64,000 nt of DNA from a virus. Made by a program: the position numbers and the translations under genes. The notes under the pieces are model-generated. The model searched no databases. It worked only from the letters and a program-made list of their open reading frames with translations, and was not told where the DNA came from. Below are positions 13,021-53,685 of this stretch, piece after piece (the first letter of the stretch is position 1; each line of letters opens with the position of its first letter). The stretch lies in IMG/VR virus record IMGVR_UViG_3300009551_000004; one strand, given 5' to 3'.

Positions 13021-13319
13021 TACGCCTCCTGCACTCGGCCGGCGCGCATGTCCTCCAAGCCGCGCTGAAGGTCCGAATTCTCCAGGGTGGCCTGGTCCTG
13101 GAGTCGGTGCCACACGTATTCCTGCACCTCGCGCGGCGCGGCGCGCAGTTGCGTCAGCAGCTCCGACATGGCGCGAACCAACTCCACCATGTCCGCCGCG
13201 TCATCAGCCGCCATGTCGTTGTGCGATGAGCCATCGGCCGTGACCTCGGCCCCGTCCTTGAATCCGAACAGGTCGCAGAGGTCGTTGAACAGCTTGTCGT
13301 TCTCGGTGGGCTCGCTCAT
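13020..13319 (-). CDS. Hypothetical acidic protein
   Basis: Start MSEPTENDK with ATGA overlap. Confidence 0.65.
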   Translation of the reverse strand: MSEPTENDKLFNDLCDLFGFKDGAEVTADGSSHNDMAADDAADMVELVRAMSELLTQLRAAPREVQEYVWHRLQDQATLENSDLQRGLEDMRAGRVQEA

Positions 13320-13579
13320 TCCGAATCCTTCTTTCGTTTCCTCGGACCACGGTAATTGTTCACCTGCGCGGCGTGCGCGTCCTTGCACGGCTGGCAGCGA
13401 CAATTATAGTTCGTATAGCCGTTGACCGTGCCGTGCACACGGTCGGGAATGGGCTTGCTGAGCTTATTCGCTCGGTAGAAGGCCATGGCGTCGGCATTGG
13501 CCTTCTTGCATTTGTCGCAACGGCAGCCCTGATTGTAGCGTCGCTGCGTGCCGTGCTCCGCCAGTTTCCGCTCAGCCAT
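13316..13579 (-). CDS. Putative DNA-binding protein with two HGT..Y..GCRC..C repeats
   Basis: HGTQRRYNQGCRCDKCK and HGTVNGYTNYNCRCQPCK; this repeat is common in actinophage DNA-binding proteins (recalled from memory, not searched). Confidence 0.55.
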   Translation of the reverse strand: MAERKLAEHGTQRRYNQGCRCDKCKKANADAMAFYRANKLSKPIPDRVHGTVNGYTNYNCRCQPCKDAHAAQVNNYRGPRKRKKDSE

Positions 13580-14985: not shown

Positions 14986-15317
14986 CGTTCATCACGCCAA
15001 CCGCGCTCGTGCAGAATCGCCCACTTCTTCGCGATCTCCACGTCCAATTCGACATGCAATACCGCCGCCGTGACGAATGCGGTGATCACCACGTCGGCCA
15101 GCTCGCCAGCCATCTCCTCGAACGTGCCCGTTCGCCGCGCCTCGCCCGCCCAGCGTCGAAACGCGCCGACGAACTCACCCGCCTCCTCGGCCAACGCCAA
15201 CACCTGGCGCGTCTGAGCGGTGTCCGGATTGAACCCGACGGCTTGCAATTTCCGGGCAATGGCGATGCCGACCATCGCCAATTCGCCGACCTCGATCCGC
15301 TCCTGCTGCTCACTCAT
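14982..15317 (-). CDS. mazG: MazG-like nucleotide pyrophosphohydrolase
   Basis: LAEEAGEFVGAFRRW..ELADVVI..I..K...RGW pattern typical of phage MazG-like proteins. Confidence 0.65.
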   Translation of the reverse strand: MSEQQERIEVGELAMVGIAIARKLQAVGFNPDTAQTRQVLALAEEAGEFVGAFRRWAGEARRTGTFEEMAGELADVVITAFVTAAVLHVELDVEIAKKWAILHERGWRDER

Positions 15318-16389
15318 ATTCGGTCACATTCCCCTTGCGCGTCAGGTAGTCGGCCGACACGACCTTCACAATCGCGCGCTCGCCACCCAGCGCATCCGAG
15401 ACGCGCTCCCGCACCGGCCGCACCACGACACCCTCGCGGATGTGCGCCCCGGTGCCGGTGACCTGTTCGCGGCCCGACGCCAGGGACAGAATCGTGTCGA
15501 TGTCGAAGCCGCCCACATAGAGCACTGGCACGAACGGCACGACGCCGTGGAGCAGATCGCCCACCTGGTCATGGTCGGCCCAGAACACCTCACCGTTGAC
15601 GTCCACGCGGATGTCGAACGCGGCATACCCTGGCGTGCCCTTCGTGGTGCCGTACTTCAGATCCTGTACGCCATACACCTCGCCGAAGATCGCCACGCGA
15701 TCGGCCTCCAAATCGGTCAGGATGTTCCGCGCCACCTCTTCGATGTCATACGCGCGCACGGCCCGCCAGTACAGGTTCCGCTCCGACTCCGCGATGGCCA
15801 GACGCTTCTCGGAGAAGCCCTTCGACGTCACGAACAGGCCGCCGTCTTTCGTCACCGTGACGCAACACGCCGAGCCGTGAATCTTCTCCGTGGCGACGAC
15901 GCGCTCTCCCGGCGCGAACACGTCCGGATAGCGCTGAAAATGCTGGATGTCGGTCCACGGCAGCAGATCCGGCGCGGAAATCATAGTTCCCGAGAGATCC
16001 CCGGGCACCTCCGGCACCCACTTCGTGATGCCCAGCGGCTCGGAATAATCCTCGTCGCCGAAGACGCGCGAATTGGCTGCCCAGGAAAGCGTCAATCCGG
16101 CAACCGCCTTCGGCCGGCACACGATGCCCTGGGAGAGCTCACCGCGCAGCCGCACCGCCTTGACGCGATTGGCCTGCTTGCCGGCGAGGCGGCCGACCAG
16201 CCCCAACTCCTCGATCAGCTCCGTCGGCAGGATCGCCTGCTCCGGAATGTAGATCGCGTACTCGCCCGTCTTGTAGACGCCCTTCGGCACCACGGCGCGG
16301 TACAGGCCCACCTGAGCCAGCTCCAGGGCATCCGCATTCGGATGCTCGTGAATCGTCAACCGCTCAGCGGTGACGCGCAGTGTGGACAT
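15310..16389 (-). CDS. RNA ligase with N-terminal OB-fold tRNA-binding-like domain
   Basis: N-terminus ERLTIHEHPNADALELAQVG resembles tRNA_bind/CsaA domains; nucleotidyltransferase motif I EKIHGS. Confidence 0.7.
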   Translation of the reverse strand: MSTLRVTAERLTIHEHPNADALELAQVGLYRAVVPKGVYKTGEYAIYIPEQAILPTELIEELGLVGRLAGKQANRVKAVRLRGELSQGIVCRPKAVAGLTLSWAANSRVFGDEDYSEPLGITKWVPEVPGDLSGTMISAPDLLPWTDIQHFQRYPDVFAPGERVVATEKIHGSACCVTVTKDGGLFVTSKGFSEKRLAIAESERNLYWRAVRAYDIEEVARNILTDLEADRVAIFGEVYGVQDLKYGTTKGTPGYAAFDIRVDVNGEVFWADHDQVGDLLHGVVPFVPVLYVGGFDIDTILSLASGREQVTGTGAHIREGVVVRPVRERVSDALGGERAIVKVVSADYLTRKGNVTEYE

Positions 16390-19292: not shown

Positions 19293-19510
19293 TTCGCACC
19301 GCCGTGAACGGCGATGACCTGCCGGGCGATGTGCAGCTTGCCGGCCAGGTCCGTGATGGTCGCGCCGTTCGCCAGGGCGTCCGCAGCGGACCTGAGGCGT
19401 GCCACGAGTTCCATTTCCTCCAGGTCCAGGTCACGCAGGCCGGAGAGGGTCGTCGCGGCGTCGCGCAGGGTGGCGATGTCCCTGCCCTTTTCCGATTCCG
19501 AGTTCGTCAT
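19289..19510 (-). CDS. Small paralog family B protein (tandem copy 1)
   Basis: DIATLRDAATTL...DLAGKLHIARQVIAV. Confidence 0.7.
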   Translation of the reverse strand: MTNSESEKGRDIATLRDAATTLSGLRDLDLEEMELVARLRSAADALANGATITDLAGKLHIARQVIAVHGGAK

Positions 19511-19541
19511 GGCACGAACGTAGCGTAATGCCAGTGATGCG

Positions 19542-19733
19542 TCAATGGCGGGAGTCGGTGTGGCGTGCTTTTTGCAGCTCAGCCCACTCTTCGAGGGTCG
19601 GCAAGGAGTTCGGCGGGATGCGTGACGGGCGGGCGCGTACTTCGTGCCAGGTTTCCGAGGCCTGACGTCGGCGTTCTGGGGTCCAGGCAGCTTTCGCGGC
19701 GCGGGACAGGTGGGCTCGTTGCTCAGGAGTCAT
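19542..19733 (-). CDS. Small basic protein, first gene of the leftward block
   Basis: 63-aa ORF with no SD sequence; possibly a short-leader transcript. Confidence 0.55.
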   Translation of the reverse strand: MTPEQRAHLSRAAKAAWTPERRRQASETWHEVRARPSRIPPNSLPTLEEWAELQKARHTDSRH

Positions 19734-20071
19734 GGCTCGATAGTCGCATATCAGCGTCGGTCACGCAGCGGCCAAGACGACTGGTCACTTTCGATGCGTG
19801 CAGTCGGCACGGGCCGACCAGGAGCTGCACGGGCCGAGGGTTGGGCTCTGAGAGCGTCTCTGCGCCTCGAAAACGGCCTGGCAAGTACAACCTCCCTCGG
19901 AAGCGGAGAACGTGGCGCAGCGGGCCAACCAGGGGGCAGAACGGCGGCATGGCGGTCGAGGGGGGACCGGAGGCTTGTCGTGGGGCTCCCCAGATGCAGG
20001 TCGGGGCACGTTTCGGGGCTGGTAACCGGGGGTCGTCACTCTGCGTGCACCCCGAAAAGTGCTGCTCAGGG

Positions 20072-20112
20072 GTTGAGGAAGTTGAGGATGAGGGTGAAGG
20101 TGAGGGTGAAGT
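20072..20112. repeat. GTTGAGG x2 followed by a tandem TGAGGGTGAAGG x2
   Basis: Read directly; GTTGAGG is the inverse of the CTCAAC copies at 20217-20256. Confidence 0.8.
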
Positions 20113-20152
20113 GGGGCCACCCTCGGTGACCGAGAGTGACGAAAGTGGTAGT

Positions 20153-20208
20153 GGTTATATACGTATAGTATATCTTGATCTTGATAATAATCGAATTAGA
20201 CCTCCAAA
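20153..20208. other. AT-rich core between inverted repeat sets
   Basis: GGTTATATACGTATAGTATATCTTGATCTTGATAATAATCGAATTAGACC in an otherwise GC-rich genome. Confidence 0.7.
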
Positions 20209-20216
20209 ACCCCGGA

Positions 20217-20270
20217 CTCAACGCTCAACTTGGTGAGGGTGACCCTCGCCCTCAACTTGGGGGTGAGGGT
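20217..20270. repeat. CTCAAC x3 interleaved with TGAGGGTG x2 and the palindrome GAGGGTGACCCTC
   Basis: Read directly from the sequence. Confidence 0.8.
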
Positions 20271-20362
20271 GCTGGTTACCCTCGGCCTTTTCGTCGACAG
20301 AGGGTGAGATTCGGGGCCTGTGACTGGTTGGCCTCGATGCTCTTTCCCCCTTGTGCATGTGC

Positions 20363-20388
20363 GCGTACGCGTGCGTACGCGCGTACGC
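20363..20388. repeat. GCGTACGC x3 within an alternating purine-pyrimidine tract
   Basis: Copies at 20363-70, 20373-80 and 20381-88. Confidence 0.75.
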
Positions 20389-20567
20389 CCGACGGGGAGA
20401 GGCGAGGAGCGAGAGACGAGGAAACTTTGTCGGAACTTCTCGGCCCCCTAACGCGCCCGCGTCCGCGCGCATACAGGCACGCGGCGCGTGTGTCAAGGGG
20501 TGGGGAGCCAGAAGAAACGAGACGGTGCGTCTCGCCATGGGCTGGGTAGCCGTCGTATCCTGGAGCC

Positions 20568-21020
20568 GTGAGTGGTGGTGATGTGGCGGGAATCGAGCAG
20601 ATCGAGGCCATGTTGTATGTTGCGGGATTGAAGGATTGGGATTCCGTGAAAGCCATTCTGGATATGGTGGAAGAATATGCGAATACAAAAGATTCGCGTA
20701 TTCAGTTTATTCCCGTTAATAACGGTGCGTGCATTTGCGCGAAATTGCCGGATGAAGTACGCCGTCGCTTGTCCGCTCTCTATTCTGCGAAAGATTTTCC
20801 GCGAGAATCCGTGAAAGAGTGCTCGGAATGTAGATTGACATTGCCGAGATCTGAGTTCCATAAGAATCCTGGAACAAAGGATGGCAGACAATCTGCGTGC
20901 AAGGAATGTCGGAACAGAAGGCAACGGAAACTAAGAGTGGCGCGGCGATTGGCGCGAAGCGGGGCAATCATCGGAACGGATTGGTTTGATTCCGATGCGC
21001 CGTTCGACGACTTCGAGTAA
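20568..21020 (+). CDS. Hypothetical protein with C-terminal CxxC..F....DG....CxxC zinc-ribbon motif (moron-like)
   Basis: 150-aa ORF with GTG start; visibly AT-richer than its flanks; isolated rightward gene followed by two terminators. Confidence 0.65.
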   Translation: MSGGDVAGIEQIEAMLYVAGLKDWDSVKAILDMVEEYANTKDSRIQFIPVNNGACICAKLPDEVRRRLSALYSAKDFPRESVKECSECRLTLPRSEFHKNPGTKDGRQSACKECRNRRQRKLRVARRLARSGAIIGTDWFDSDAPFDDFE

Positions 21021-21041
21021 AGGAGGGTCACCCTCCTTTTT
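21020..21041 (+). terminator. Intrinsic terminator 1
   Basis: AAGGAGGGT-C-ACCCTCCTT followed by a T run. Confidence 0.8.
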
Positions 21042-21067
21042 ATTCGACCCCCAGGCCGTTATATGCT

Positions 21068-21091
21068 AAAGGAGGGTCACCCTCCTTTTTT
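21068..21091 (+). terminator. Intrinsic terminator 2 (duplicate of terminator 1)
   Basis: AAAGGAGGGTCACCCTCCTTTTTT. Confidence 0.8.
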
Positions 21092-21190
21092 ACTGGAGCG
21101 GGAGATCCCATTTGCTGGACATCATGCATGCTGCGGATCATTCGTAACCGTCATACATTCCCTGTTGTGGGCGATATGCGGCAGCCGTAA

Positions 21191-21431
21191 GGCGGCGTGG
21201 TGCTGGGAATAGCGGACTCAATGCAATGGCGTGTGACGGCGTGAGTGATACGCAGGGTGGCCTATGCGGCAGGGATTCGAGGCGGCGTGGGCGCTGAACT
21301 GCGGCGTTGCTGAGCGGCGAGTTTTCGGGGCCGCGATGGGTGAATGCCGATGCGGCGTGGTGGGGCAGTGGGGCGGCGGGATATTCGGCGGCACGGCGTG
21401 GGGTTTGGGGGTGTGGAGCGTGGCGGCGTGG
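21191..21431. repeat. Dispersed (G/T)GCGGCGTGG repeats in a G-rich noncoding stretch
   Basis: Copies at about 21191, 21281, 21351, 21392 and 21421. Confidence 0.6.
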
Positions 21432-21653
21432 TTTCTATTTGCCAAGCCTCGATGCCGTCACGCGCGACGCGCGCGTCATGCGATTGCCGAGTGGCGATGC
21501 GTCACGGTGACGAAAGCTCGACGCCGCGTCGAGGCCGGGCAGCTCTTGACCATCTATTTAAAATTCGAATCTCACCATTTGTTACTCGTCGTCAATCACT
21601 CATAAAAAATTTTTAAAAGGTGGTTCCCCGCGCGGGCGTGCGTGCGCCCTCCC

Positions 21654-21761
21654 TGTCCCATTTGTCCGTTACGTCTCTTCTGCGCTTCTTGTCCATGATG
21701 TCCACACAGTCCTAGATGTCCGTTTTGGTCGAAGTGTCCCCAATGTCCGATTTCCCTAGAC
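21654..21761. repeat. 9-bp-phased TGTCC array (about 12 units)
   Basis: TGTCC or one-off variants at 21654, 21663, 21672, 21681, 21690, 21699, 21708, 21717, 21726, 21735, 21744 and 21753. Confidence 0.85.
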
Positions 21762-21939
21762 ATACGTCTGTACACCTCCCCATCCGATCGTTGGATGGTA
21801 GGACGTCTGCTGAGCATGCGGCATTGCCACGCGGGCCCGCAGCAGGTCAGCCACGTAACGGCCGCACTGGGCCCTCATGTGGCCGCAGACGGCCGCAACC
21901 GCGTCTCCGGTGTGTTCGTACTGCCAGTGGCGCGTCATT

Positions 21940-21969
21940 GGTCTAGCACGCGCTCAGGGCCCGTGTAAA
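21940..21969 (-). promoter_or_regulatory. Leftward SigA-like promoter (TTTACA-18-TAGACC)
   Basis: GTGTTTACA family; points into the TGTCC array. Confidence 0.5.
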
Positions 21970-21985
21970 CACCCCCGATCGGCTC

Positions 21986-22014
21986 TGTACACACCGCGCC
22001 GCATGTGGTGTAAT
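21986..22014 (+). promoter_or_regulatory. Rightward promoter (TGTACA-17-TGTAAT)
   Basis: Located upstream of 22052..22252. Confidence 0.45.
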
Positions 22015-22051
22015 GAGCTTTCGTGGAATCGGAACAGGAAGGGGCAGAGCC

Positions 22052-22252
22052 ATGTTCGATGTCGAGGTGCGCCGCGCCGGTGGCTGGTCAGCCGTTGCGC
22101 CAGGCCTACCCAGCAGGCAGGAAGCGACCGACAACGCGGCCGAGGTGCGCCACGCCGAACGGCAACGACCGCAGGGAGCCACGTCGGTACGCGTGATGGG
22201 GCTGGATGGCAACGGCGTCCGCGTGCAACTCGGCGTGTGGAAGATCCGTTGA
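22052..22252 (+). CDS. Small hypothetical protein (66 aa)
   Basis: ATG after GGAACAGGAAGGGG; followed by a strong terminator. Confidence 0.6.
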   Translation: MFDVEVRRAGGWSAVAPGLPSRQEATDNAAEVRHAERQRPQGATSVRVMGLDGNGVRVQLGVWKIR

Positions 22253-22260
22253 ACGCCGAA

Positions 22261-22289
22261 ACGCCCCGCCGGATGATCCGGCGGGGCGT
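22261..22289. terminator. Bidirectional terminator
   Basis: 12-bp stem ACGCCCCGCCGG / CCGGCGGGGCGT between convergent genes. Confidence 0.75.
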
Positions 22290-22302
22290 CGAGTGGTGCG
22301 GG

Positions 22303-22881
22303 TCAGTCCTTGTTGCACTCGCGGTGATCCATGGTCACGTGCTCAATCCAGTGGATCACGGGCAACGGGCGGCCGTCCGGCATGCTGACCGCATAGCCGG
22401 TCAGCGGGACGCGGGTCATGCGGTTCAGTTCGTTACTGGCGCGTTTCTGCGCTTCCTCGGCCGCGAGGTACGTCCGGCAGTGCTCACAGTCGTCGCGCAG
22501 CGGCATGTGGTCGCACGCGTCCCCGAGGTGTTCGAGCGTGCGGAACATGTCCGCCAACAGAACCTCGGCCGCGTCGTGCGCCGACGCAGTGCAGTACGGC
22601 GCGTTGTTCGGCGAGTAACCCGCGTCGTTGTACCCCACGTGCAGCCGCGCGACGATCGGCGTGTAACTCGTGTGCTCCGCGAGCCAGTCCCATCCGGCAT
22701 CGGTCGGCTCGTGCTCCCACTTGCGCGCGGCAGGGGTGAGCAGTTCGCGCCCGACCAGTGCGGCCGTGGTGCCGGTGGACGGGTACGCGTGCGTGACCTC
22801 GGGGCCGATGTCGCCCGTGGCGATACGGCCGTACAACTCCAGTGCCGCGCGCATGATGCCGGTGAGCTTGTGCGTGGTCAT
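22303..22881 (-). CDS. Hypothetical protein
   Basis: 192-aa ORF in the track. Confidence 0.75.
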   Translation of the reverse strand: MTTHKLTGIMRAALELYGRIATGDIGPEVTHAYPSTGTTAALVGRELLTPAARKWEHEPTDAGWDWLAEHTSYTPIVARLHVGYNDAGYSPNNAPYCTASAHDAAEVLLADMFRTLEHLGDACDHMPLRDDCEHCRTYLAAEEAQKRASNELNRMTRVPLTGYAVSMPDGRPLPVIHWIEHVTMDHRECNKD

Positions 22882-22912
22882 GTGAACCCTCTTTCCGATT
22901 CCGGTCCGTTGT

Positions 22913-22952
22913 CCGTGGCGCGGGTCCGACCCCCATCGGGCCCCGCCATGGG
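22913..22952 (-). repeat. Intergenic long hairpin, G5-loop family, copy A
   Basis: CCGTGGCGCGGGTCCGA-CCCCCA-TCGGGCCCCGCCATGG. Confidence 0.7.
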
Positions 22953-22959
22953 CGACGGC

Positions 22960-23133
22960 TCAGAGCATGCCGTCGGAGTACCAGGGTTCCTCGGCGTACG
23001 GACCGGTGCCGTTGCACGCGTCGCAGTCGTCGACACACTGGACGTTCCACGAGCGCCCCGGCTCGGTCTGGGCCATGGTGTGCCCGTTGGCCGCGCGGTA
23101 GGGGCGCTGCCAGTCCTCAAGTTCCGTGTTCAC
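22960..23133 (-). CDS. Small Cys-containing protein
   Basis: GTG start after GGAATCGGAAAGG. Confidence 0.55.
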   Translation of the reverse strand: MNTELEDWQRPYRAANGHTMAQTEPGRSWNVQCVDDCDACNGTGPYAEEPWYSDGML

Positions 23134-23174
23134 GGTGTCTGCCTTTCCGATTCCGCAACCTGACACAACACATC

Positions 23175-23193
23175 ATGTCCCATCGTGGGACAT
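23175..23193 (-). promoter_or_regulatory. Palindromic operator module, site 1
   Basis: ATGTCCCA-TCG-TGGGACAT with -10-like TATGAT immediately upstream in gene orientation. Confidence 0.65.
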
Positions 23194-23218
23194 CATACAG
23201 CCGCCAAATGGGTGAATG

Positions 23219-23512
23219 TCAGTCGGTGAATTCGTAGCCGATGACCAGCGACCCGCAACGGCCGTAGCTGACGATTTCGCCGCGCGTGAGGGTTCGCTCA
23301 AGCCTGCGCACGGACTCGCCACCATCGCGGAGCAGTGCGGCCAGTCCGGCCGCGTAGTCCTCATGGCCACCCGCGTACGCCATCACCAGACCCTCAAACA
23401 CCCGCTCCGCACGCGCGAACCGTTCCGGGCTGTACGGCTCACGGTTCGCGATCATCATCGCCTTGTACGCCCGGTCGACCAGCGTGGCCAATTCCGCAGT
23501 GGTGGCAACCAT
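23219..23512 (-). CDS. Hypothetical protein
   Basis: Start MVATTAELA after ACGGAAACGGGAG. Confidence 0.65.
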   Translation of the reverse strand: MVATTAELATLVDRAYKAMMIANREPYSPERFARAERVFEGLVMAYAGGHEDYAAGLAALLRDGGESVRRLERTLTRGEIVSYGRCGSLVIGYEFTD

Positions 23513-23536
23513 CGTGATCACTCCCGTTTCCGTCGT

Positions 23537-23575
23537 CCGTGGCGTGGGTCCGACCCCCATCGGACCCCACCATGG
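23537..23575 (-). repeat. G5-loop hairpin family, copy B
   Basis: CCGTGGCGTGGGTCCGA-CCCCCA-TCGGACCCCACCATGG. Confidence 0.7.
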
Positions 23576-23587
23576 GCGACGGAACGG

Positions 23588-23824
23588 TTAGCCGAGGTAG
23601 GCCGATGCCGCGCGACCGTGGAATTGCACGGCGTCTGCCTCGGCCGAGGTCAGCGCGCGCACACTGCCCTTGGCGACGCACGGCGTGTACCCGGTCCGGT
23701 CCATGGTGACGCTCACGCCGTTGCCGGGCACGCACTCGCGCACGGTGGCCGATTCCCAGTAGCGCGGACCGGCCGTGTCGTCGAGGTGCACCATGACCAC
23801 GTCACCCGCGCGAAAGTCCTGCAT
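23588..23824 (-). CDS. Small hypothetical protein
   Basis: ATG (MQDFRAGD) after GGAAACGGAAACGGAA. Confidence 0.6.
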   Translation of the reverse strand: MQDFRAGDVVMVHLDDTAGPRYWESATVRECVPGNGVSVTMDRTGYTPCVAKGSVRALTSAEADAVQFHGRAASAYLG

Positions 23825-23866
23825 TCTGACCACCCATTCCGTTTCCGTTTCCGAACTGCGTCAAGC

Positions 23867-23885
23867 ATGTCCCATGGTGGGACAC
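23867..23885 (-). promoter_or_regulatory. Palindromic operator module, site 2
   Basis: ATGTCCCA-TGG-TGGGACAC. Confidence 0.65.
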
Positions 23886-23931
23886 CGCACAGCCGCCAAA
23901 CGGGTGAACCATGACGGTCCACCCGTTTGCG

Positions 23932-24396
23932 TCAGTCGTGGTACAGCCCTGCCACGGTCGTCTCGCCCGGCAGTGTGGTGTCTGGGCGGGCCCGGTCGCG
24001 CACAGTCGCCGGTACGTAGAGGTTCTGGCCCTCACGGCCCGTTTCGCGGCTCAGTGGCGTCACGTGGCGGCCCAGCCAGCGGCGCGCGCTCTCCTCGCCG
24101 ATGCCGCGCACTTTGGCCACGTGTGCGCACGCCTGGTCCGTTGTCCAGTACGGCTCATGGCGCGGTTCCGGCAGCGTCCACCCGTCAGTGATTTCCCGAT
24201 AGACGGTCGTCGCGCTGTCACCGCTCACGTGTTCCACCAACACCATGCCGCGATCGAAATTCGGGCCTTCTCGCTGGGCCAGTTCCTCGGCAATCGCGGC
24301 TTGCGCCGTCAACGCGTCGCGGTAGCGCGAATCGGTGACCGGCACACGGGCATGCCACACACCGAAACCGTCGGCCCACGTGCTGATCTCGGACAC
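23932..24396 (-). CDS. Hypothetical protein
   Basis: GTG start after AGTAGGGAGGAA. Confidence 0.7.
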   Translation of the reverse strand: MSEISTWADGFGVWHARVPVTDSRYRDALTAQAAIAEELAQREGPNFDRGMVLVEHVSGDSATTVYREITDGWTLPEPRHEPYWTTDQACAHVAKVRGIGEESARRWLGRHVTPLSRETGREGQNLYVPATVRDRARPDTTLPGETTVAGLYHD

Positions 24397-24405
24397 GATT
24401 CCTCC

Positions 24406-24723
24406 CTACTTGCTCACGCTGGCCAGCAGCACGGCCAGTCGACCATTGGCGAACGAGTCACCGTTGCCCAGTCCGGACGGGTTGACGCATCCACGCGCGT
24501 CGATTGTTCGCGCGCCGTGGATCATCACCTGTCCGTACACGTCACCCCAACGCGCGCAGTCCGCCGTCCACCCATCGGCCGCCGCGTCGGCGGCCGTCAA
24601 CGTGCGCGGCGTGCTGATCGTCGGATCGATGGCGGTCACGTGGCGGCCGTTCGACATGGCGCAGCCGGTGAACGCGACACAGCCGAGAATCACGCCGATC
24701 AAAGCACCCATGAGCGTGCGCAT
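24406..24723 (-). CDS. Putative lipoprotein
   Basis: MRTLMGALIGVILGCVAFTGC: signal peptide plus lipobox-like FTGC. Confidence 0.65.
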   Translation of the reverse strand: MRTLMGALIGVILGCVAFTGCAMSNGRHVTAIDPTISTPRTLTAADAAADGWTADCARWGDVYGQVMIHGARTIDARGCVNPSGLGNGDSFANGRLAVLLASVSK

Positions 24724-24770
24724 TGTGTGTTCTCCCTCGTTCCGTTTCCGTGTGTTGAACCGCGTCAAGC

Positions 24771-24789
24771 ATGTCCCAAGATGGGACAT
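24771..24789 (-). promoter_or_regulatory. Palindromic operator module, site 3
   Basis: ATGTCCCA-AGA-TGGGACAT. Confidence 0.65.
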
Positions 24790-24811
24790 CGGCATACCGC
24801 CGAATGGGCGA

Positions 24812-25132
24812 TCAGTACGTGAGCGTTTGAGAGTCGTAGCACGCGGCGTGCAGCGGCATCCGCTCATGACCACACCACAAGCCGAATTCCTCGGCACAGT
24901 TGCCGTAAATGCCCTCCCGTTCCTGCAATTCCTCGCTCACGGTCGCGTCTTCGCGATGCGGGTTGCCATCCTGCAAATCGGTGGGGCATATCCACGTCGG
25001 CACGCCGTCGTCACTGTCCATGACGGCCTTGTGGCACGCCGGACAATGGCCGATGCATCGGCCGCCGTTCTCATCGGCGGTCGGGCCCGCCATGTGCAGC
25101 ACGGCGCATGTGGTGATCAGCTTGGCGGTCAT
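24812..25132 (-). CDS. Cys-rich hypothetical protein
   Basis: Start MTAKLITTC after GGAAAGGA. Confidence 0.6.
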   Translation of the reverse strand: MTAKLITTCAVLHMAGPTADENGGRCIGHCPACHKAVMDSDDGVPTWICPTDLQDGNPHREDATVSEELQEREGIYGNCAEEFGLWCGHERMPLHAACYDSQTLTY

Positions 25133-25206
25133 GGCGCAATCCTTTCCGATCGAATATCCGTGATGGGGCCCGTCACACACGGGCCCGCTCATGGCGATTC
25201 GATCAG

Positions 25207-25605
25207 TCAGTCAAGCCACGTGAGCGTGGCGATTCGACCGGCCTTGGTGCGGGTGATCCGCGCGTGGCGGATGTCCTTCGTGATGTGATCCACGGTCCAT
25301 CCGTTCTCGACGTCGTACGCGCACGCGGCGTCGGACGACGTCACGAGCGTTTCGCCGTCCGCGAACAGCTTGAAGCGCGGATTGCCGCTCACACTGTTGT
25401 TCAGCCGCTCGTAACGGTGAACGGTGATGACGTCATCGGCCGCAGGCTCTGCGAAGCACGCCTCGCGGAAACGGTACGCGTCGAATCGCGAGGCGTCCGC
25501 TTTGAACATGGCGGAGAATTCGCGCGTCAACTCGTCACGGTTCTCGCCGCCGTACGCGTTGATGATCCGGGCAGCCTCGACGTAGTGCTTCTTTGACATT
25601 GCCAT
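25207..25605 (-). CDS. Hypothetical protein
   Basis: 132-aa ORF in the track. Confidence 0.7.
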   Translation of the reverse strand: MAMSKKHYVEAARIINAYGGENRDELTREFSAMFKADASRFDAYRFREACFAEPAADDVITVHRYERLNNSVSGNPRFKLFADGETLVTSSDAACAYDVENGWTVDHITKDIRHARITRTKAGRIATLTWLD

Positions 25606-25635
25606 GGTGAAAGCCTTTCATTCCGATTCGGGATT

Positions 25636-25672
25636 CCGTGGCCGCACGCGTCCCCCAACCGCGTGTGACCAT
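25636..25672 (-). repeat. G5-loop hairpin family, copy D
   Basis: CCGTGGCCGCACGCG-TCCCCCAAC-CGCGTGTGACCATG. Confidence 0.55.
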
Positions 25673-25683
25673 GAAACGACGAA

Positions 25684-25938
25684 TCAACCAACCTGACCGA
25701 CGGCGAGCGCCAACACGAGAACCGGAACGCCGTTGCGGTCGGTCGTCGCGATGAACTTGTCCGCCTCATAGCGGAAAGTGTCCGACGCGCCATCGCGGTA
25801 CACCCACTGAACCGCGATGAGGTTGTTTTCCGCGTCCACGCGGACAACGCTGCCGTCCAGGTCCTCCCACCGGTTCGGTGAGCCGTTGTACCCCGAGAGG
25901 TAGACGTGCATGCCCTTGGTGACGTCCAGCGTGCGCAT
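25684..25938 (-). CDS. Small hypothetical protein
   Basis: Start MRTLDVTKG after GGAAACGGAACGAGGA. Confidence 0.65.
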   Translation of the reverse strand: MRTLDVTKGMHVYLSGYNGSPNRWEDLDGSVVRVDAENNLIAVQWVYRDGASDTFRYEADKFIATTDRNGVPVLVLALAVGQVG

Positions 25939-25984
25939 GGTGTCCTCGTTCCGTTTCCGACTGTCAATCTGTTGTGCGCTCAGC

Positions 25985-26003
25985 ATGTCCCATCGTGGGA
26001 CAC
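25985..26003 (-). promoter_or_regulatory. Palindromic operator module, site 4
   Basis: ATGTCCCA-TCG-TGGGACAC. Confidence 0.65.
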
Positions 26004-26028
26004 TGTCATACCGCCAAACGGGTTAACC

Positions 26029-26391
26029 TCAGAGGTTCGTGAAGTACGCAGGCACCTCGACATATTCCGGCCACGTGCACTCATCCTCTGTGCACACCCG
26101 GTCGTCGATTCGGTCAATCTGGTCCGTTCCGTCTCCATGTGTGACGAGATCACCATATGCCCAGCAGTACTCGTGCCCGTTTGCGTCGCTATCGTTGGGC
26201 GTGTAGCCGATTTCGTACACCGTGTCGCCCAGATACCAGCGGTCACGTTTCTGGCAGACCTTTGCCCATTCCGGGGATATGTGTTCACGAATGGCAGCGG
26301 CAAGGCAGTCCGAGCCGTGCTTGTCGCTACACACGTAACGCACGGTGTGGGTCTGCCCTTCCGGCCCCCATGCAATATAGATCAGTCCCAT
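26029..26391 (-). CDS. Hypothetical protein
   Basis: Start MGLIYIAWG after GAAAGGAACG. Confidence 0.65.
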   Translation of the reverse strand: MGLIYIAWGPEGQTHTVRYVCSDKHGSDCLAAAIREHISPEWAKVCQKRDRWYLGDTVYEIGYTPNDSDANGHEYCWAYGDLVTHGDGTDQIDRIDDRVCTEDECTWPEYVEVPAYFTNL

Positions 26392-26407
26392 GATCGTTCC
26401 TTTCGCC

Positions 26408-26463
26408 GTCTCAGTGTCCGTGAAAGAGGGCCGTTTCCGGCCCCCCAACACGGTCACTGAGAC
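26408..26463 (-). repeat. G5-loop hairpin family, copy E (composite)
   Basis: Outer stem GTCTCAGTG / CACTGAGAC enclosing CCGTG..GGCCG..CGGCC-CCCCAA-CACGG. Confidence 0.55.
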
Positions 26464-26750
26464 GCACGCCGCCGATACCAGCCCTTGGCAAACGCCAGTG
26501 CGTTCTCAAGCTGTGTGAAGCCGCCCAACCGTTCCTCGTCATCCGGCGTCAATGCGAGGTCCGACCCGCGCACCTCGAACGTGGCCCAGTTGTCGACCGT
26601 CACGCGCTTCAGTTCGACGACCCGGATTCCGTCCACCATGAGCACCGCGTGATCCGCGTACTCTTTCCCGAACGGCGCGGTAGAAAGGTCGTTGCCGTTC
26701 TCCCACAGCAGCGTTTCGAATTCGATGTCATCCACTGCGCTTCCCCTCAC
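26454..26750 (-). CDS. Hypothetical protein
   Basis: 98-aa ORF; GTG start with GTGA overlap. Confidence 0.65.
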   Translation of the reverse strand: MRGSAVDDIEFETLLWENGNDLSTAPFGKEYADHAVLMVDGIRVVELKRVTVDNWATFEVRGSDLALTPDDEERLGGFTQLENALAFAKGWYRRRASQ

Positions 26751-26971
26751 CAGTCATAGTGGAGCACGGGCAGTCCGGCCGAAATGCCGGACACCTCGAC
26801 ACACGCGTTGGTGCATTCCTCGCACTCTCGCACGTGCGCCAACACGTGTTCCGGTTCAACATCCGGCACGCCGTTGCTCACGTGCGCGTCGGTGTCGAAC
26901 ATGAGAAACAATTCATCACATCCTACGGGCTCCCAAAACCGCCCATCGGACATGTCCCACTGCATACGCAT
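26747..26971 (-). CDS. Small hypothetical protein
   Basis: Start MRMQWDMSDG after GGAATCGGAAGGA. Confidence 0.6.
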   Translation of the reverse strand: MRMQWDMSDGRFWEPVGCDELFLMFDTDAHVSNGVPDVEPEHVLAHVRECEECTNACVEVSGISAGLPVLHYDW

Positions 26972-26997
26972 GGCGTCATCCTTCCGATTCCGGGTAT

Positions 26998-27036
26998 CCG
27001 TGGCGACACGCGGCCCCCGTCCGCGTATCACCATGG
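26998..27036 (-). repeat. G5-loop hairpin family, copy C
   Basis: CCGTGGCGACACGCGG-CCCCCGT-CCGCGTATCACCATGG. Confidence 0.65.
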
Positions 27037-27405
27037 TCACTCGGAATCGCGAAACGCGATCACCCATTCGTCATCGTAACCGGCAATCGTCGTCGCCACG
27101 TAGTACCCCGGATTGTCGAGGATGTGCTGCGCCAGATTACCGCCGATGAATTCCGACGGGTGCATGCACGGACCCCGGTAGTTGTACTGGCCGGTCCAAC
27201 CGCGTAGGAGCGTCCACCCGTCGCCGGACACGCGAACATCCTCCGCGCCGTCCGTGTGCGTGTTGTCGTACACCTCGGGAGCGTGCAGACCGCGCGGCTC
27301 ACTGACCGTCCCGTCGCCATGCGAGAGAATCACGTGGCCAATGCTCATGATGTTTTCGAGCGCGTAGGGATTCGAGCGGCTCAGATTGACCGTGATGCGT
27401 TCCAT
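27037..27405 (-). CDS. Hypothetical protein, paralog pair F
   Basis: Start MERITVNLS; shares GW..L.G....NPGYYV with the next gene. Confidence 0.65.
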   Translation of the reverse strand: MERITVNLSRSNPYALENIMSIGHVILSHGDGTVSEPRGLHAPEVYDNTHTDGAEDVRVSGDGWTLLRGWTGQYNYRGPCMHPSEFIGGNLAQHILDNPGYYVATTIAGYDDEWVIAFRDSE

Positions 27406-27422
27406 GTCGTCGCCTTTCCGGT

Positions 27423-27728
27423 TCAGACTGCCGGGTGGTACGCGACGACGAACGTGTTGCGCTTGACGTCCGGGTGGGGCAAGCGCACGTAGTAGCCCGG
27501 CGCGTTCATCATGTCGTACGCCACGCGGTTGCTGATCTCGTCCGTCGGGCCGCACAGCTGGGCCCATCCGCTGCCCAGAACGGCCACGTTGCCGTTTTGC
27601 TGCTCCACGGTCTCCACGTGGTCGAGCGTGCAATTGACCACGATGTCGACCAGCGGCCCGTCCAAGGTGTTCCACACCTCGATCACGCGGTAGTTCTGCA
27701 TCATGTTGCGGAGCGTGCTCGGCTTCAC
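27423..27728 (-). CDS. Hypothetical protein, paralog pair F
   Basis: GTG start after GGAAACGGAACGAGGGA. Confidence 0.6.
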   Translation of the reverse strand: MKPSTLRNMMQNYRVIEVWNTLDGPLVDIVVNCTLDHVETVEQQNGNVAVLGSGWAQLCGPTDEISNRVAYDMMNAPGYYVRLPHPDVKRNTFVVAYHPAV

Positions 27729-27774
27729 GTTGTCCCTCGTTCCGTTTCCGTGTCCTCTGTGGTGCCGGTCAAGC

Positions 27775-27793
27775 ATGTCCCACCGTGGGACAT
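27775..27793 (-). promoter_or_regulatory. Palindromic operator module, site 5
   Basis: ATGTCCCA-CCG-TGGGACAT. Confidence 0.65.
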
Positions 27794-27865
27794 GTGTCTA
27801 CCCCCAAACGAGTGACGCCGGTCACAGAACTTGCTGCCATGTTCCCCCGAACGGAGGTATGCACA

Positions 27866-27884
27866 GTGTCCCACTGTGGGACAT
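27866..27884 (+). promoter_or_regulatory. Palindromic operator module, site 6 (inverted, serves the rightward gene)
   Basis: GTGTCCCA-CTG-TGGGACAT, then GCTT..AACGGAAACGGAAAGGGG..ATG. Confidence 0.65.
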
Positions 27885-27923
27885 GCTTATGCGGCACGAC
27901 AACGGAAACGGAAAGGGGCGACC

Positions 27924-28292
27924 ATGCGAACCACGACCCTCGCGGATTACCTGATCTCGTTTTACGAGACCGACACCGTGGACAATCAGGGCGCACAGTG
28001 CCAGCACTGCCAGGAAATCGGCGCACTAATTACGCACAACGTCAGTTACGCGGGATGCGTCACCGGCGCGATCATGTCGGTGGAGTGTTGCGGCGGCTGC
28101 GCGTCGCGGATCATCCGCGCCAACGCGGACGAGACCTATCAGGTGATCGTGTTCTGGGTGCCGTTCTCCAACGTGCTCCGTGACATCGACGTGCCGTTCT
28201 CTCCCGCGTGGCTCGCCACGTACGAACTGGACATCGTGGATGACCGAATGAACAGCATCGATGACACGCGGCCCCATCCGGACGGCGAGTGA
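27924..28292 (+). CDS. Cys-rich hypothetical protein
   Basis: ATG after AACGGAAACGGAAAGGGG. Confidence 0.7.
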   Translation: MRTTTLADYLISFYETDTVDNQGAQCQHCQEIGALITHNVSYAGCVTGAIMSVECCGGCASRIIRANADETYQVIVFWVPFSNVLRDIDVPFSPAWLATYELDIVDDRMNSIDDTRPHPDGE

Positions 28293-28381
28293 CCACGATT
28301 GACACGGCCGTGCCGGTCACGCACCGACATGCGCCGCGCCAACCGGCGTTCACCATTCCGAATCGGAAAGAGGCACTGATC

Positions 28382-28489
28382 ATGGGTCGTCGTCGTCACC
28401 GTCGTCACTCACACCGCCACGGTGTGGGCCACGCGTTGCTGCGCATTGTGGAGCACATCCTCAGACACGCCGCGCGGGGCATGCGGTAA
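28382..28489 (+). CDS. Small Arg/His-rich peptide (35 aa)
   Basis: ATG after GGAAAGAGG; very short. Confidence 0.35.
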   Translation: MGRRRHRRHSHRHGVGHALLRIVEHILRHAARGMR

Positions 28490-28721
28490 ATCGTGCGTGT
28501 AGGCACACGCATTGCCAATCACACGTCATGCAATTCGCGCGTATTCCATTGTGTGAATTGCTAGACGAACCATCGTGGTAATGCGGCACGGTATGGGACG
28601 ACATCCATCCACACCGTGCCGCGTGCTGCCCGTGCTCGCTGGCCACACAGCGCCGAGGCCCTGTGCCCTGCCGTGTGCCTTGCCGGCCCTGTGCCATGGC
28701 GTACCGGCCCGGCAGGGCGTG

Positions 28722-28856
28722 GCCTTTGGTGGACACGCGCCATGGTGCGTGCCGCTGTGCTGCACGCTGCTGGGCCGGCAAGGGACGCGGTGCCCATGGC
28801 ATGCCTTTGGTGGACACCGTGCTGCACAGCTCGGCAGGGCGTGGCCTTTGGTGGAC
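28722..28856. repeat. GCCTTTGGTGGAC x3 (two copies extended to GGCAGGGCGTGGCCTTTGGTGGAC)
   Basis: Copies at 28722, 28803 and 28844. Confidence 0.8.
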
Positions 28857-29093
28857 GCATGCCCTGCTGCGTGTGTGTACGTACGTGTGTATCGTGCAGT
28901 GTGTACACACGTACGACATGGGCCGTGTGTCGCGACGCGCTCACAGAGCGTGCCTGCCCGTTGTGTCCGCTTCGCGAGCCTCGCCCGCGATGTCCGTTTT
29001 GCCCGCTCTGCACTATATGGGGCGCATTGCGGCGAACGGCACCACCGTTTAGATCCACCGCAAAATTCCTCGATCCAAAAACTTCGTTGAACG

Positions 29094-29144
29094 CTCAACT
29101 ACTTCGTGGCCTCAACCACTTCACGGCCTCAACTACGCCCTATA
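29094..29144. repeat. Three tandem 17-bp CTCAAC(T/C)AC.. iteron-like repeats
   Basis: CTCAAC at 29094, 29111 and 29128, exactly 17 bp apart. Confidence 0.8.
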
Positions 29145-29167
29145 CACCCCCGCCGTCACAAGGCACA

Positions 29168-29542
29168 ATGGCCACCATGACAGCCACGGGTGACTTCTAC
29201 GAAGACGACGAACCGCTCGACCACATTCTCGCCGCTCTTGAAGTCGGCAAAAGGGAGATCACAAAGCACGCGGATGATCCGACTAAAATCGTAGCCCCAT
29301 GGACTCCCGACACCGTTGACGCCCTGAACGCGTTTCAAGCCTGGGGCGTGATGCACCCCTTTACATGCGGCATCGATTCGACCCACGGCACTGGTAAGCT
29401 CCACGCCACCGAGCAGGGCTGGAAGTGCACGGATTCGGAATGCGACTACCGACAGAACTGGGCCCACGCCTTCATGGCCGATCGTGACTTCCCCGTGCGT
29501 GTCGAAGCGCAGTATCAACTGTTCCTGTCTTTGAGCGAGTAG
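29168..29542 (+). CDS. Hypothetical protein
   Basis: Real-looking C-terminal part of the 28616..29542 ORF; first ATG after the repeat block. Confidence 0.65.
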   Translation: MATMTATGDFYEDDEPLDHILAALEVGKREITKHADDPTKIVAPWTPDTVDALNAFQAWGVMHPFTCGIDSTHGTGKLHATEQGWKCTDSECDYRQNWAHAFMADRDFPVRVEAQYQLFLSLSE

Positions 29543-31091: not shown

Positions 31092-31186
31092 TTGGGAGTG
31101 CGTCGCCTCTGCCAATTGGGCTACCACACCACGAAGCTCGAAGAGGTGAGAGGTGTGGGAAGGGTTCGAACCTCCACTGAAACGCA
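31092..31186 (-). ncRNA. Permuted tRNA-like unit 1 (3' half 31186-31151, 20-nt linker, 5' half 31130-31092; anticodon loop CTCCCAA)
   Basis: The 3' half reads TGCGT-TTCAGT-GGAGG-TTCGAAC-CCTTC-CCACACC-T. The 5' half reads GGTGTGG-TA-GCCC-AATTGGCAG-AGGC-G-ACGCA-CTCCCAA. Confidence 0.55.
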
Positions 31187-31246
31187 CTGACGTTCAGGCT
31201 GAAACTCAAGTTCAGCTTGTGGTCAGGTACTACCTTATCACGTGCG

Positions 31247-53073: not shown

Positions 53074-53148
53074 GCCTTCCTGGCCCAAATGGCAGAGGCC
53101 GTTGATTCAAAATCAACGCAAGTCTGGGTTCGAGTCCCAGGGAGGGCA
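53074..53148 (+). tRNA. tRNA with anticodon CAA (Leu-type anticodon and D arm, but a short variable region)
   Basis: GCCTTCC-TG-GCCC-AAATGGCAG-AGGC-C-GTTGA-TTCAAAA-TCAAC-GCAAGT-CTGGG-TTCGAGT-CCCAG-GGAGGGC-A. Confidence 0.6.
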
Positions 53149-53272
53149 CGTAGTACCGTCATAACCTAGGACATTGACGGAGCACTACCCGCGTACCATA
53201 CGGTCGGCGAAAATACGAAGGTCGCTCCTTCTATCACGGTTTTCGCGGTTCCAGTCCCTGCTGCGCGGTCAG

Positions 53273-53343
53273 GCCGTACAGCGCTGGCTGGGTCGGCGTG
53301 GCTGTAAACCACTCCCGTGGGGGTTCGAATCCCTCGTGCGGCA
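53273..53343 (+). tRNA. tRNA-like, anticodon GTA (Tyr), short variable region and weak D arm
   Basis: Acceptor GCCGTAC / GTGCGGC; anticodon loop CTGTAAA; T arm GGGGG-TTCGAAT-CCCTC. Confidence 0.45.
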
Positions 53344-53355
53344 CAAGAATTACAT

Positions 53356-53429
53356 GCTGGTGTAGCTCAATTGGAAAGAGCACCGCCCTGTCGAGGCGGG
53401 AGTTGCGGGTTCGAGTCCCGTCGCTAGCG
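53356..53429 (+). tRNA. tRNA-Asp (GTC)
   Basis: Canonical cloverleaf with anticodon arm CCGCC-CTGTCGA-GGCGG. Confidence 0.85.
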
Positions 53430-53486
53430 CAAAGTTGGAACTAGTCTTTCCCCGAAAACCAATCTTCCAATGTTCCAACTTTATCC

Positions 53487-53560
53487 GGCCTCGTAGCTCA
53501 GTTTGGGAGAGCATTCGGTTGAAACCCGAAGGGTCGCAGGTTCGAATCCTGCCGGTGCCA
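53487..53560 (+). tRNA. tRNA-Phe (GAA)
   Basis: Anticodon arm TTCGG-TTGAAAC-CCGAA; one acceptor mismatch. Confidence 0.8.
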
Positions 53561-53569
53561 CTTAAGTAC

Positions 53570-53642
53570 GGCTCCATAGCTCAGTCGGTAGAGCTCCCGA
53601 CTTTTAATCGGGAGGTCGCAGGTTCGAACCCTGCTGGGGTCA
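53570..53642 (+). tRNA. tRNA-Lys (TTT)
   Basis: Anticodon arm CCCGA-CTTTTAA-TCGGG with canonical D and T arms. Confidence 0.85.
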
Positions 53643-53645
53643 CAA

Positions 53646-53685
53646 GTTTCTACTGTGCATTCAACCCTGGATGCACAGTAGAAAC
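53646..53685 (+). other. Perfect 15-bp hairpin between tRNAs
   Basis: GTTTCTACTGTGCAT-tcaaccctgg-ATGCACAGTAGAAAC. Confidence 0.8.

Follow-up and report, generated by a model that had tools for sequence, protein, structure and literature searches.

IMGVR_UViG_3300009551_000004 is a virus sequence of 64 kb (hereafter, the window) that covers about 60% of a genome of about 105 kb (contig k141_586430, 104,803 bp). On its minus strand, positions 22303..27728 hold a leftward array of 14 small genes (A-N) without family assignment, interspersed with two kinds of repeated module. This report concerns the palindrome carried by one of them, the P module; the other, the H module, contains a long hairpin. 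An original prediction, made from the letters of the window, had described six copies of a promoter/operator module built on this palindrome.

A search of the window with the pattern ATGTCCCA-N3-TGGGACAT returned six matches at up to 2 mismatches, compared with 0.03 expected, and 0/100 shuffles reached six. The matches start at 23175, 23867, 24771, 25985, 27775 and 27866, where the original prediction had located them, and the spacers are those it had listed. Its 8-bp perfect inverted repeat held in part: 7-bp arms are present in all sites, but the eighth pair is A/T in only 3/6 (G/T in 3/6). The unit that is invariant across the six sites is the 17-mer TGTCCCA-N3-TGGGACA; one dyad-bearing sequence, written out, is TGTCCCACGATGGGACA. 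The sites, the genes they serve and the orthologous modules in a diverged relative, L292, are as follows.

23175..23193 (core 23176-23192), minus strand: P1, ATGTCCCATCGTGGGACAT; serves gene M (22960-23133); orthologue L292:10885
23867..23885 (core 23868-23884), minus strand: P2; serves gene K (23588-23824); orthologue L292:10510
24771..24789 (core 24772-24788), minus strand: P3; cassette of gene I (lipoprotein-like, 24406-24723) and gene J (23932-24396)
25985..26003 (core 25986-26002), minus strand: P4; serves gene F (25684-25938); orthologue L292:8410
27775..27793 (core 27776-27792), minus strand: P5, first module of the leftward array; genes A (27423-27728) and B (27037-27405); orthologue L292:7279
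27866..27884 (core 27867-27883), plus strand: P6, inverted; rightward operon 27924-28292, 28383-28489, 29177-29542; orthologue L292:7185

All six sites are intergenic, the direction of their flanks matches the served gene in each case, and the dyads sit 40-65 nt upstream of the start codons of small genes with unassigned functions. The six copies are confined to 5 kb. No extra copy was found at up to 3 mismatches of the 14-base core in the rest of the window, and no palindrome was found in the 8 kb past its left end (L284), giving a total of 72 kb surveyed; half-sites on their own were not enriched in the window. In these 72 kb, equal frequency of the motif inside coding regions, an outcome that the original prediction had set against itself, was not observed. 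P5 and P6 form the back-to-back divergent pair that had been predicted and occupy the sole divergent intergenic region of the array (195 bp). Since this is the one region between the leftward genes and the rightward operon, it must hold promoters both ways. The module had also been said to partition the region into cassettes; P modules do head cassettes, but they are not alone, as H modules alternate with them.

Conservation of the palindrome in diverged relatives

Contigs L004-L007 represent the same phage as the window (99.9% identical), and diverged relatives were found through gene J homologues. In L292, L293 and L294 the protein is 84% identical, and the DNA is 70-85% identical over the syntenic stretch; in L474 to L478 the proteins are 52-65% identical. 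Overall, proteins of the related contigs are 52-85% identical, the flanking-DNA identity of 70-85% having been measured for L292. A set of 26 sites was compiled from seven contigs, namely the window, L292, L474, L475, L476, L477 and L478, with 20 of the sites outside the window; L293 and L294 have the same modules as L292 and were left out of the count.

Results showed that all 14 arm bases were unchanged in 26/26 sites, whereas the 3-bp spacer occurred in 10 forms. In the five L292 orthologues, 70 arm bases remained without change at about 20% divergence, the probability of which by chance is about 1e-7. The palindrome is a real, strongly constrained cis-element. The outer eighth position was A.T or G.T in 23/26 sites and G.A or A.A in 3/26, and this broken pair in three sites indicates that a longer stem is not under selection.

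The H modules served as a comparison within the same array. Each consists of a long GC hairpin with the flanks CCATGG...CCACGGA, followed by a start-associated sequence (SAS, described below).

22882..22959, minus strand: H module
23513-23587, minus strand: H module
25133-25206, minus strand: H module
25606-25683, minus strand: H module
26392-26453, minus strand: H module
26972-27036, minus strand: H module

In the H hairpins, 7/12 consensus pairs are compensatory, folding energies are -21 to -35 kcal/mol, and the hairpins are kept in L292 and L474 by wobble or compensatory changes. Between cassettes, the H module may serve for RNase III-type processing, or it may be a terminator/attenuator. 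Fixed arms around a free spacer, beside hairpins that covary, argue for sequence-specific DNA recognition and not for an RNA stem, which agrees with the original reasoning that arms conserved without covariation suggest a protein site. These comparisons support the view that the element would be bound by a protein in a sequence-specific way, in connection with the initiation of transcription.

Gene content varies between relatives right beside the modules. L292 lacks genes A, E, H and K as well as module P3 (a module equivalent to P3 stands before an I-like gene at L474:1873 and L477:4144), and gene J is elsewhere reduced to its C-domain. Changes of cassette content exactly beside the modules would suit elements of recombination or mobility, either cassette boundaries like those of the T4 PeSL regulatory cassettes or selfish REP/MITE-like repeats, with no dedicated regulator. 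Similarly, the repeats of Cluster O phages mark indel boundaries (PMC4351075), and the same 19-mer heads a dispersed repeat in Rhodobacterales (see below). However, any repeat would do for recombination, so that 14 fixed bases with a free spacer across 35-67% GC are left unexplained; moreover, the orientation and start-codon distance of the modules are fixed, and no transposase or recombinase lies nearby. We consider this explanation quite improbable; repeated regulatory DNA would more likely lead to cassette shuffling as a by-product.

Proposed promoter layout and start-associated sequences

The original prediction had taken a TA(T/G)nnn box immediately upstream of the palindrome as the -10 element, which placed the palindrome at the transcription start. 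The T at position 6 of this box is absent in 5/6 sites (within the palindrome modules TAnnnT occurs only at P1), and the box is swapped out in orthologues: GGTATGCACAG at window position 27866 is GGAGTCTTCCGTCG in L292, and TATGAT at 23175 is TGTGCGG in L292. A GCTTGAC element, also assigned to the module, is not kept in orthologous modules. Better conserved is a hexamer, CA[T/A][G/A][C/A]T, that starts with the last two bases of the right arm.

23172..23177, minus strand: candidate -10 hexamer CATGAT at P1, overlapping the right arm and suggested by its conservation
23864-23869, minus strand: candidate -10 hexamer CATGCT
24768-24773, minus strand: candidate -10 hexamer CATGCT
25982-25987, minus strand: candidate -10 hexamer CATGCT
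27772-27777, minus strand: candidate -10 hexamer CATGCT
27882-27887, plus strand: candidate -10 hexamer CATGCT

Among the 26 sites, three of which were mis-oriented and were read by hand, the hexamer is CATGCT in 16, CATGAT in 5, CAAGCT in 3 and CATACT in 2. In 26/26 its second base is A and its sixth is T, and positions 3-5 vary. A -35-like ATGACA or TAGACA (5/6 match to TTGACA) is found 16-18 bp upstream in several modules. Because CAnnnT is the sole invariant -10-like feature, we infer, with moderate support from the sequences, that the dyad lies not at the transcription start but in the -35/-10 spacer, at about -27 to -11. An oriented upstream box with the consensus TTCACCCGTTTGGCGG lies 8-10 nt 5' of the palindrome and is kept in relatives at that distance from the dyad.

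23201..23216, minus strand: upstream box
23893-23908, minus strand: upstream box
24797-24812, minus strand: upstream box
26011-26026, minus strand: upstream box
27801-27816, minus strand: upstream box
27842-27857, plus strand: upstream box

No canonical sigma-70/SigA promoter was found in 21-30.5 kb, and TAnnnT does not occur on either strand of the divergent region (27700-27960). A divergent region without a canonical -10 would also fit an extruded DNA hairpin that acts as the promoter for a phage RNA polymerase, as in N4 early promoters, and the geometry of the palindrome (5-8 bp stem, 3-nt loop) is that of these promoters. Nevertheless, the loop bases here are not conserved, whereas N4 requires specific loop and stem bases, and six sites lie mid-genome instead of a few at the genome end. 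In addition, no RNA polymerase-like or giant gene is present in 72 kb of the ~105-kb genome, where the largest open reading frame (ORF) encodes an 831-aa Prim-Pol. An N4-type promoter is therefore extremely improbable.

The tail of the predicted module, CGGAA...GAGG, is not part of it. This SAS, CGGAA(A/T/C)CGGAA..GGAG/GAGG, stands directly before 20 or more of the start codons in the window, among them those of genes with canonical promoters or H modules, and its distance from the dyad varies from 10 to 22 nt.

27740..27750, minus strand: SAS CGGAAACGGAA(CGAGG), one of at least 20 copies
22893-22903, 23145-23155, 23837-23853, 24740-24750, 25949-25959 and 26982-26992, minus strand: SAS copies in the array
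27903-27913 and 28358-28368, plus strand: SAS copies in the same region, on the side of the rightward operon
5929, 10741, 19500, 33698, 42581, 49417 and 57693, minus strand: further SAS sites
22024, plus strand: further SAS site

Some copies (10741, 57693, 42581 and 19500) lie behind canonical TTTACA-N17-TAnnnT promoters. Between the end of such a promoter, (GGTG)TTTACA-N17-TAnnnT, and the SAS downstream there are about 8 nt, so many mRNAs may begin at the SAS.

Two other readings of the module were tried and rejected. Tiny ORFs beginning with GGnGGTATG differ in frame between modules. Pairing of the upstream box with the SAS was not borne out by RNAalifold on the six modules, which was confident only for the palindrome stem; the other pairs were weak and partly broken. 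Downstream of gene J, the P2 upstream box is paired with its own inverted copy (23893-23931; L292 10463-10500; L474 2479-2520), and this pairing is held by a compensatory change (CAAACGGGTG..CACCCGTTTG versus GAACGGGTG..CACCCGTTC). The structure resembles a terminator-like hairpin made from the box.

Several neighbouring genes were also inspected. Genes A and B on the minus strand are paralogues with a common ...NxPGYYV... motif, and L292 has a single B-like copy directly behind the module. In the P6 operon, 28383-28489 (plus strand) is a 35-codon ORF with its own SAS that encodes an arginine/histidine-rich peptide (MGRRRHRRHSHRHGVGH...); no convincing reading frame was seen in 28490-29176.

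Known repeat classes and the palindrome in other lineages

INPHARED megablast revealed no close relative of the phage, and the module was found in no annotated phage. The genome encodes Lsr2, an Rpf-like transglycosylase, a large terminase and RNA-repair enzymes, and its GC content is 61%. Best protein matches were to Gordonia, Arthrobacter and Microbacterium phages, and the DUF7873 protein is nearest to Gordonia and Arthrobacter phage versions. These features suggest a phage that is uncultured and probably infects actinobacteria; its source is rhizosphere metagenomes. Pfam and PHROGs matched none of the window proteins to an integrase or repressor family.

Other features of the window are as follows. 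The RNA-repair genes comprise an RNA ligase (15310-16389), an RlaP-type nucleotidyltransferase (38313-39077) and, elsewhere, a polynucleotide kinase/phosphatase and HAD_SAK_2. There are five clustered tRNAs (Leu, Asp, Phe, Lys and Met), a sixth tRNA-like Rfam match that contains a long insert, and, apart from these, a minus-strand tRNA-Ser (53074-53766, 54033-54131 and 31150-31239). MazG and a nucleotide-sugar epimerase (42669-43838) are also encoded. Region 19500-22300 shows lower GC (0.58), positive GC skew and weak coding signal. Its ORFs run rightward, with a leftward array on either side, and it could function in regulation or replication.

An exact-string literature search for the palindrome gave no match. 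Among the closest described repeats is that of Cluster O phages, TGTTCGG-N3-CCGAACA, proposed to be a dimeric-protein site and known to bound indels (Corndog; Cresawn et al. 2015, PMC4351075); we confirmed 34 copies in Corndog. Both repeats are multi-copy, with invariant 7-bp arms of the form TGT...ACA and a variable 3-bp spacer, and both are enriched in short intergenic regions of a leftward array of non-structural genes. They differ in the half-site, and the Corndog copies are spread genome-wide, with a third in genes and most away from predicted promoters, whereas the six copies here are all intergenic, lie within 5 kb and each belong to a larger oriented module. Cluster EG Microbacterium phages have an 18-bp inverted repeat, GATCAACC-NN-GGTTGATC (Jacobs-Sera et al. 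2020, PMC7302621), in 8-10 copies, likewise in short intergenic regions upstream of starts, at one genome end, and kept despite divergence of the surroundings. Its sequence and 2-bp spacer are different, it stands 14-22 bp from the start codon as opposed to 40-65 here, and an upstream box or SAS is not described there. As a multi-copy perfect repeat with an intergenic upstream location and conservation despite flank divergence, the palindrome appears to be of the Cluster O/EG kind.

The resemblance to other repeats is partial. Cluster K mycobacteriophages and Cluster EF Microbacterium phages have SAS and extended SAS (ESAS) elements (Pope et al. 2011, PMC3203893; PMC7302621). As in those phages, some of the non-structural genes have an unusually conserved, asymmetric, purine-rich sequence (here CGGAAWCGGAA..GAGG) where the ribosome would bind, and some copies have an extra inverted repeat immediately upstream. 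However, the SAS of K and EF are unrelated in sequence to the SAS here, and ESAS repeats are imperfect, 17 bp long and separated by variable spacers of 4-13 bp, unlike the perfect 7-bp arms and fixed 3-bp spacer here. The Cluster A stoperators (L5 gp71 repressor; cited in PMC3203893) are also many copies of one short site in short intergenic regions that silence gene blocks. They are 13-bp, asymmetric, orientation-dependent sites bound by a temperate-phage immunity repressor, whereas here the site has dyad symmetry and the window yielded neither an integrase nor an immunity repressor. In the sequence surveyed, the palindrome lacks the defining features of ESAS and stoperators, as it does those of nut sites, N4 hairpin promoters and parS/KorB sites.

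The 17-mer was further searched for in IMG/VR, which yielded at least 118 loci; among those listed, 11 carry 3-11 copies each. The multi-copy loci represent at least five unrelated lineages of 35-67% GC, with intergenic copies at 3-11 per ~10 kb. IMG/VR contigs of these other lineages include IMGVR_UViG_3300042371_000472, 3300030430_000208 and 3300031901_000003. One lineage is actinophage-like, with WhiB, and has outer stems that covary around the core. In L010, L040, L070 and L106 (51-57% GC), the core GTCCCAC-S-GTGGGAC has covarying outer stems (e.g. ggggagt...actcccc), and GATAGTGA, a -10-like box, often follows 15-20 nt further on; WhiB and L5-type genes were seen among the pooled loci scanned. 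Another lineage is marine and distantly related to HMO-2011 and roseophages, with the dyad 2-20 nt before the ribosome-binding site. Two control palindromes of the same composition were run. TCCGCTA-N3-TAGCGGA gave 59 single matches and no multi-copy locus. With TCTGCCA-N3-TGGCAGA, strict copies never numbered three or more at a locus, but a separate real family, CTGCCA-N3-TGGCAG, was uncovered. That family is multi-copy in L297, L311, L312, L364, L367 and L383 (IMG/VR, 40-48% GC), often in pairs 14 nt apart and beside a sigma-54-like TGGCAC-N5-TTGC.

A scan of 185,579 genomes for the 19-mer gave, among the matches listed, mostly Rhodobacterales. In these (L164-L283; e.g. Tabrizicola NZ_CP192600 and Seohaeicola 4SK31), ATGTCCCA-YSR-TGGGACAT heads a ~90-bp dispersed repeat composed of the palindrome, a T-run, GAAATCAATGGGTTAC and a CtrA-box-like TTAGGG-N4-TTTAAC. 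Most copies are at gene 3' ends, often overlapping the TGA stop codon, and Rfam assigned the repeat to no family. The motif was not present in the loci around DUF7873 homologues, in the CRP-345 roseophage or in RobsFeet (24 kb examined), and a metagenome scan with an extended pattern returned only single unrelated matches and more of lineage B. No protein common to the window and the examined segments of the other palindrome lineages was found. That unrelated phages and Rhodobacterales carry the identical 17-mer suggests that operator and regulator could be transferred as a pair. More broadly, TGTCCCA-N3-TGGGACA could be a regulatory word in wide use, recognised by a DNA-binding module that moves horizontally, a proposal that we regard as tentative and rather doubtful.

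In place of a classical repressor bound at the promoter, a loading site for a ParB/KorB-like protein or another global silencer acting at a distance was also considered, as when partition-type sites are reused to control genes. The position of the palindrome relative to promoters varies among lineages, and the half-site TGTCCCAC resembles the parS half-site TGTTCCAC. An unrelated contig with the palindrome, L042, encodes a ParB-like protein, as do the Cluster O phages with the analogous TGTTCGG-N3-CCGAACA (PMC4351075). In this clade, though, the position of the site is fixed inside a conserved module, Pfam scans of the 126 window ORFs gave no match to the ParB family (ParB_N), and RobsFeet-type phages encode ParB-like proteins without such repeats in the 24 kb examined. 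A loading site of this type is very unlikely.

A candidate regulator and the proposed mechanism

Pfam and PHROGs searches of the 126 window ORFs gave no clear transcription factor, and a ribbon-helix-helix search with Arc, Mnt and CopG found nothing. The original prediction had named the XRE protein at 39488 among its candidate regulators. Its HTH_3 match is weak (E 0.0014) and it has no homologues outside the phage, so nothing ties it to the sites. An 87-aa protein at 13316-13579 (minus strand), which has two 'HGT..Y..GC.C..C' modules and is homologous to Corndog gp89 (E 2e-6), was set aside, as IMG/VR contigs with its homologues have no palindrome within 10 kb. In PHROGs, HTH, HNH, integrase and WhiB-like phage proteins also carry this module as an accessory domain.

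The best candidate binder, on structural prediction, is the product of gene J.

23932..24396, minus strand: gene J, 154 aa; N-terminal WADGFGxWHA domain and C-terminal MerR/BldC/Xis-like winged helix

Within the array, gene J comes second in the P3 cassette, and J or stand-alone C-domain homologues occur on every related contig with P modules. The C-terminal domain (aa 72-154) was modelled with a core pLDDT of 86-97 as a winged helix-turn-helix without a long coiled coil. Foldseek matched it to BldC (probability 0.72-0.82, TM ~0.5), RacA, BmrR, NmlR, MtaN, CueR, lambda gpNu1 and Pukovnik Xis, and every match was of the MerR/BldC/RacA/Xis type. A profile search of the C-domain against PDB sequences gave no match, and Foldseek with the two-domain model was discarded after meaningless kinase matches. 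MerR promoters have over-long spacers of 19-20 bp, and MerR proteins dimerise via a long coiled coil; BldC binds direct repeats. The proposed layout would share with MerR systems a dyad in the -35/-10 spacer and, by prediction, the fold of J. Unlike them, the spacer here is 16-18 bp in most modules, and J has no long coiled coil.

With moderate confidence, we interpret the palindrome as an operator that would lie inside a repeated phage-specific promoter. In geometry the 17-bp element resembles a classical operator. A dimeric sequence-specific protein would read the two 7-bp half-sites in successive major grooves, the half-site centres being 10 bp, or one helical turn, apart and the central 3 bp not contacted. 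The module would run from the upstream box through a weak -35-like hexamer and the palindrome, which would fill the 16-18-bp spacer, to CA[T/A][G/A][C/A]T. Transcription would start a few bases past the hexamer and pass through a short leader into the SAS and start codon. Occupancy of the dyad would control access of RNA polymerase, most simply by repression or otherwise by a MerR-like remodelling of a poor promoter, and would coordinate small genes in five cassettes read leftward and in a single divergent operon. The binder would most likely be phage-encoded, with J as the best candidate.

Several observations weigh against this interpretation. The -35-like hexamer matches at only 2-3/6 positions in about half of the modules, and the candidate -10 begins with C instead of T (the -12 position); both features may indicate that these promoters require a factor. 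For J, the Foldseek E-values are weak (0.3-2), and the model was built from 10 sequences with a mean pLDDT of 72. Since the module-bearing relatives are syntenic, the co-occurrence of J is not independent evidence, and a J-like domain was not detected in the examined segments of unrelated palindrome-bearing lineages. The remaining points would also fit a hairpin in the RNA. The modules have a single orientation relative to the gene at 40-65 nt from the start, as in a 5'-UTR; 23/26 sites allow an A-U or G-U eighth pair, in the sense strand only; and outside this clade the dyad is often squeezed, inside operons, between one gene's stop codon and the ribosome-binding site that follows, with no room for a promoter.

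The main rival is an RNA hairpin, with a 7-8 bp stem and a triloop, located in the 5' leader or else between cistrons. Such a hairpin could stabilise the RNA or direct its processing, act as an operator in translation, or form the boxB-like half of a nut-like site of antitermination, in which upstream box, 8-nt spacer and hairpin would let polymerase read through the H hairpins. Besides the points above, the core would be stable (about -10 to -13 kcal/mol), the order of box, spacer and hairpin is like that of lambda nut, the P6 operon encodes a 35-aa arginine-rich peptide with its own SAS (28383-28489), and H hairpins usually come after P modules. On the other hand, an invariant stem with a free loop is the reverse of known hairpin-protein recognition and of the H hairpins, and a regular A-form stem gives little sequence read-out. 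A lambda nut site, moreover, occurs once per operon, compared with six sites in 5 kb here. In other lineages the dyad reaches the centre (GTCCCAC-S-GTGGGAC and GTCCCAA-W-TTGGGAC), which is meaningful for a two-fold DNA site and not for a hairpin loop, and the eighth pair is broken in three sites of the present clade. No Rfam family was found at the window sites, the other viral loci or the Rhodobacterales loci. If transcription starts after CAnnnT, the palindrome would be untranscribed, and the divergent pair would still need promoters. An RNA hairpin is unlikely on this evidence, and we retain the operator as the preferred interpretation.

Since 2011, several clusters of actinophages have been found to carry short, perfectly conserved inverted repeats and start-associated sequences. 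A 2025 survey calls the roles of the SAS and ESAS motifs of Clusters K and EF unverified, and none is given for the Cluster O/EG repeats (PMC12699233, PMC4351075, PMC7302621). The palindrome is a new example of this known, mechanistically unsolved class of actinophage inverted repeats. It offers a clean case, with few sites, a fixed position in the module, covarying H hairpins as a control, diverged relatives and a candidate regulator in the array. If the dyad is bound by J, or by some other protein, and a non-canonical promoter is gated in this way, this would be the first mechanism for the class and would show how such phages coordinate blocks of small 'dark-matter' genes. A transferable operator/regulator pair could serve as an orthogonal switch. 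If one protein family with fixed specificity reads the palindrome in all lineages, it would constitute an undescribed pan-phage system of transcription control and provide a handle on the Cluster O/EG/K repeats.

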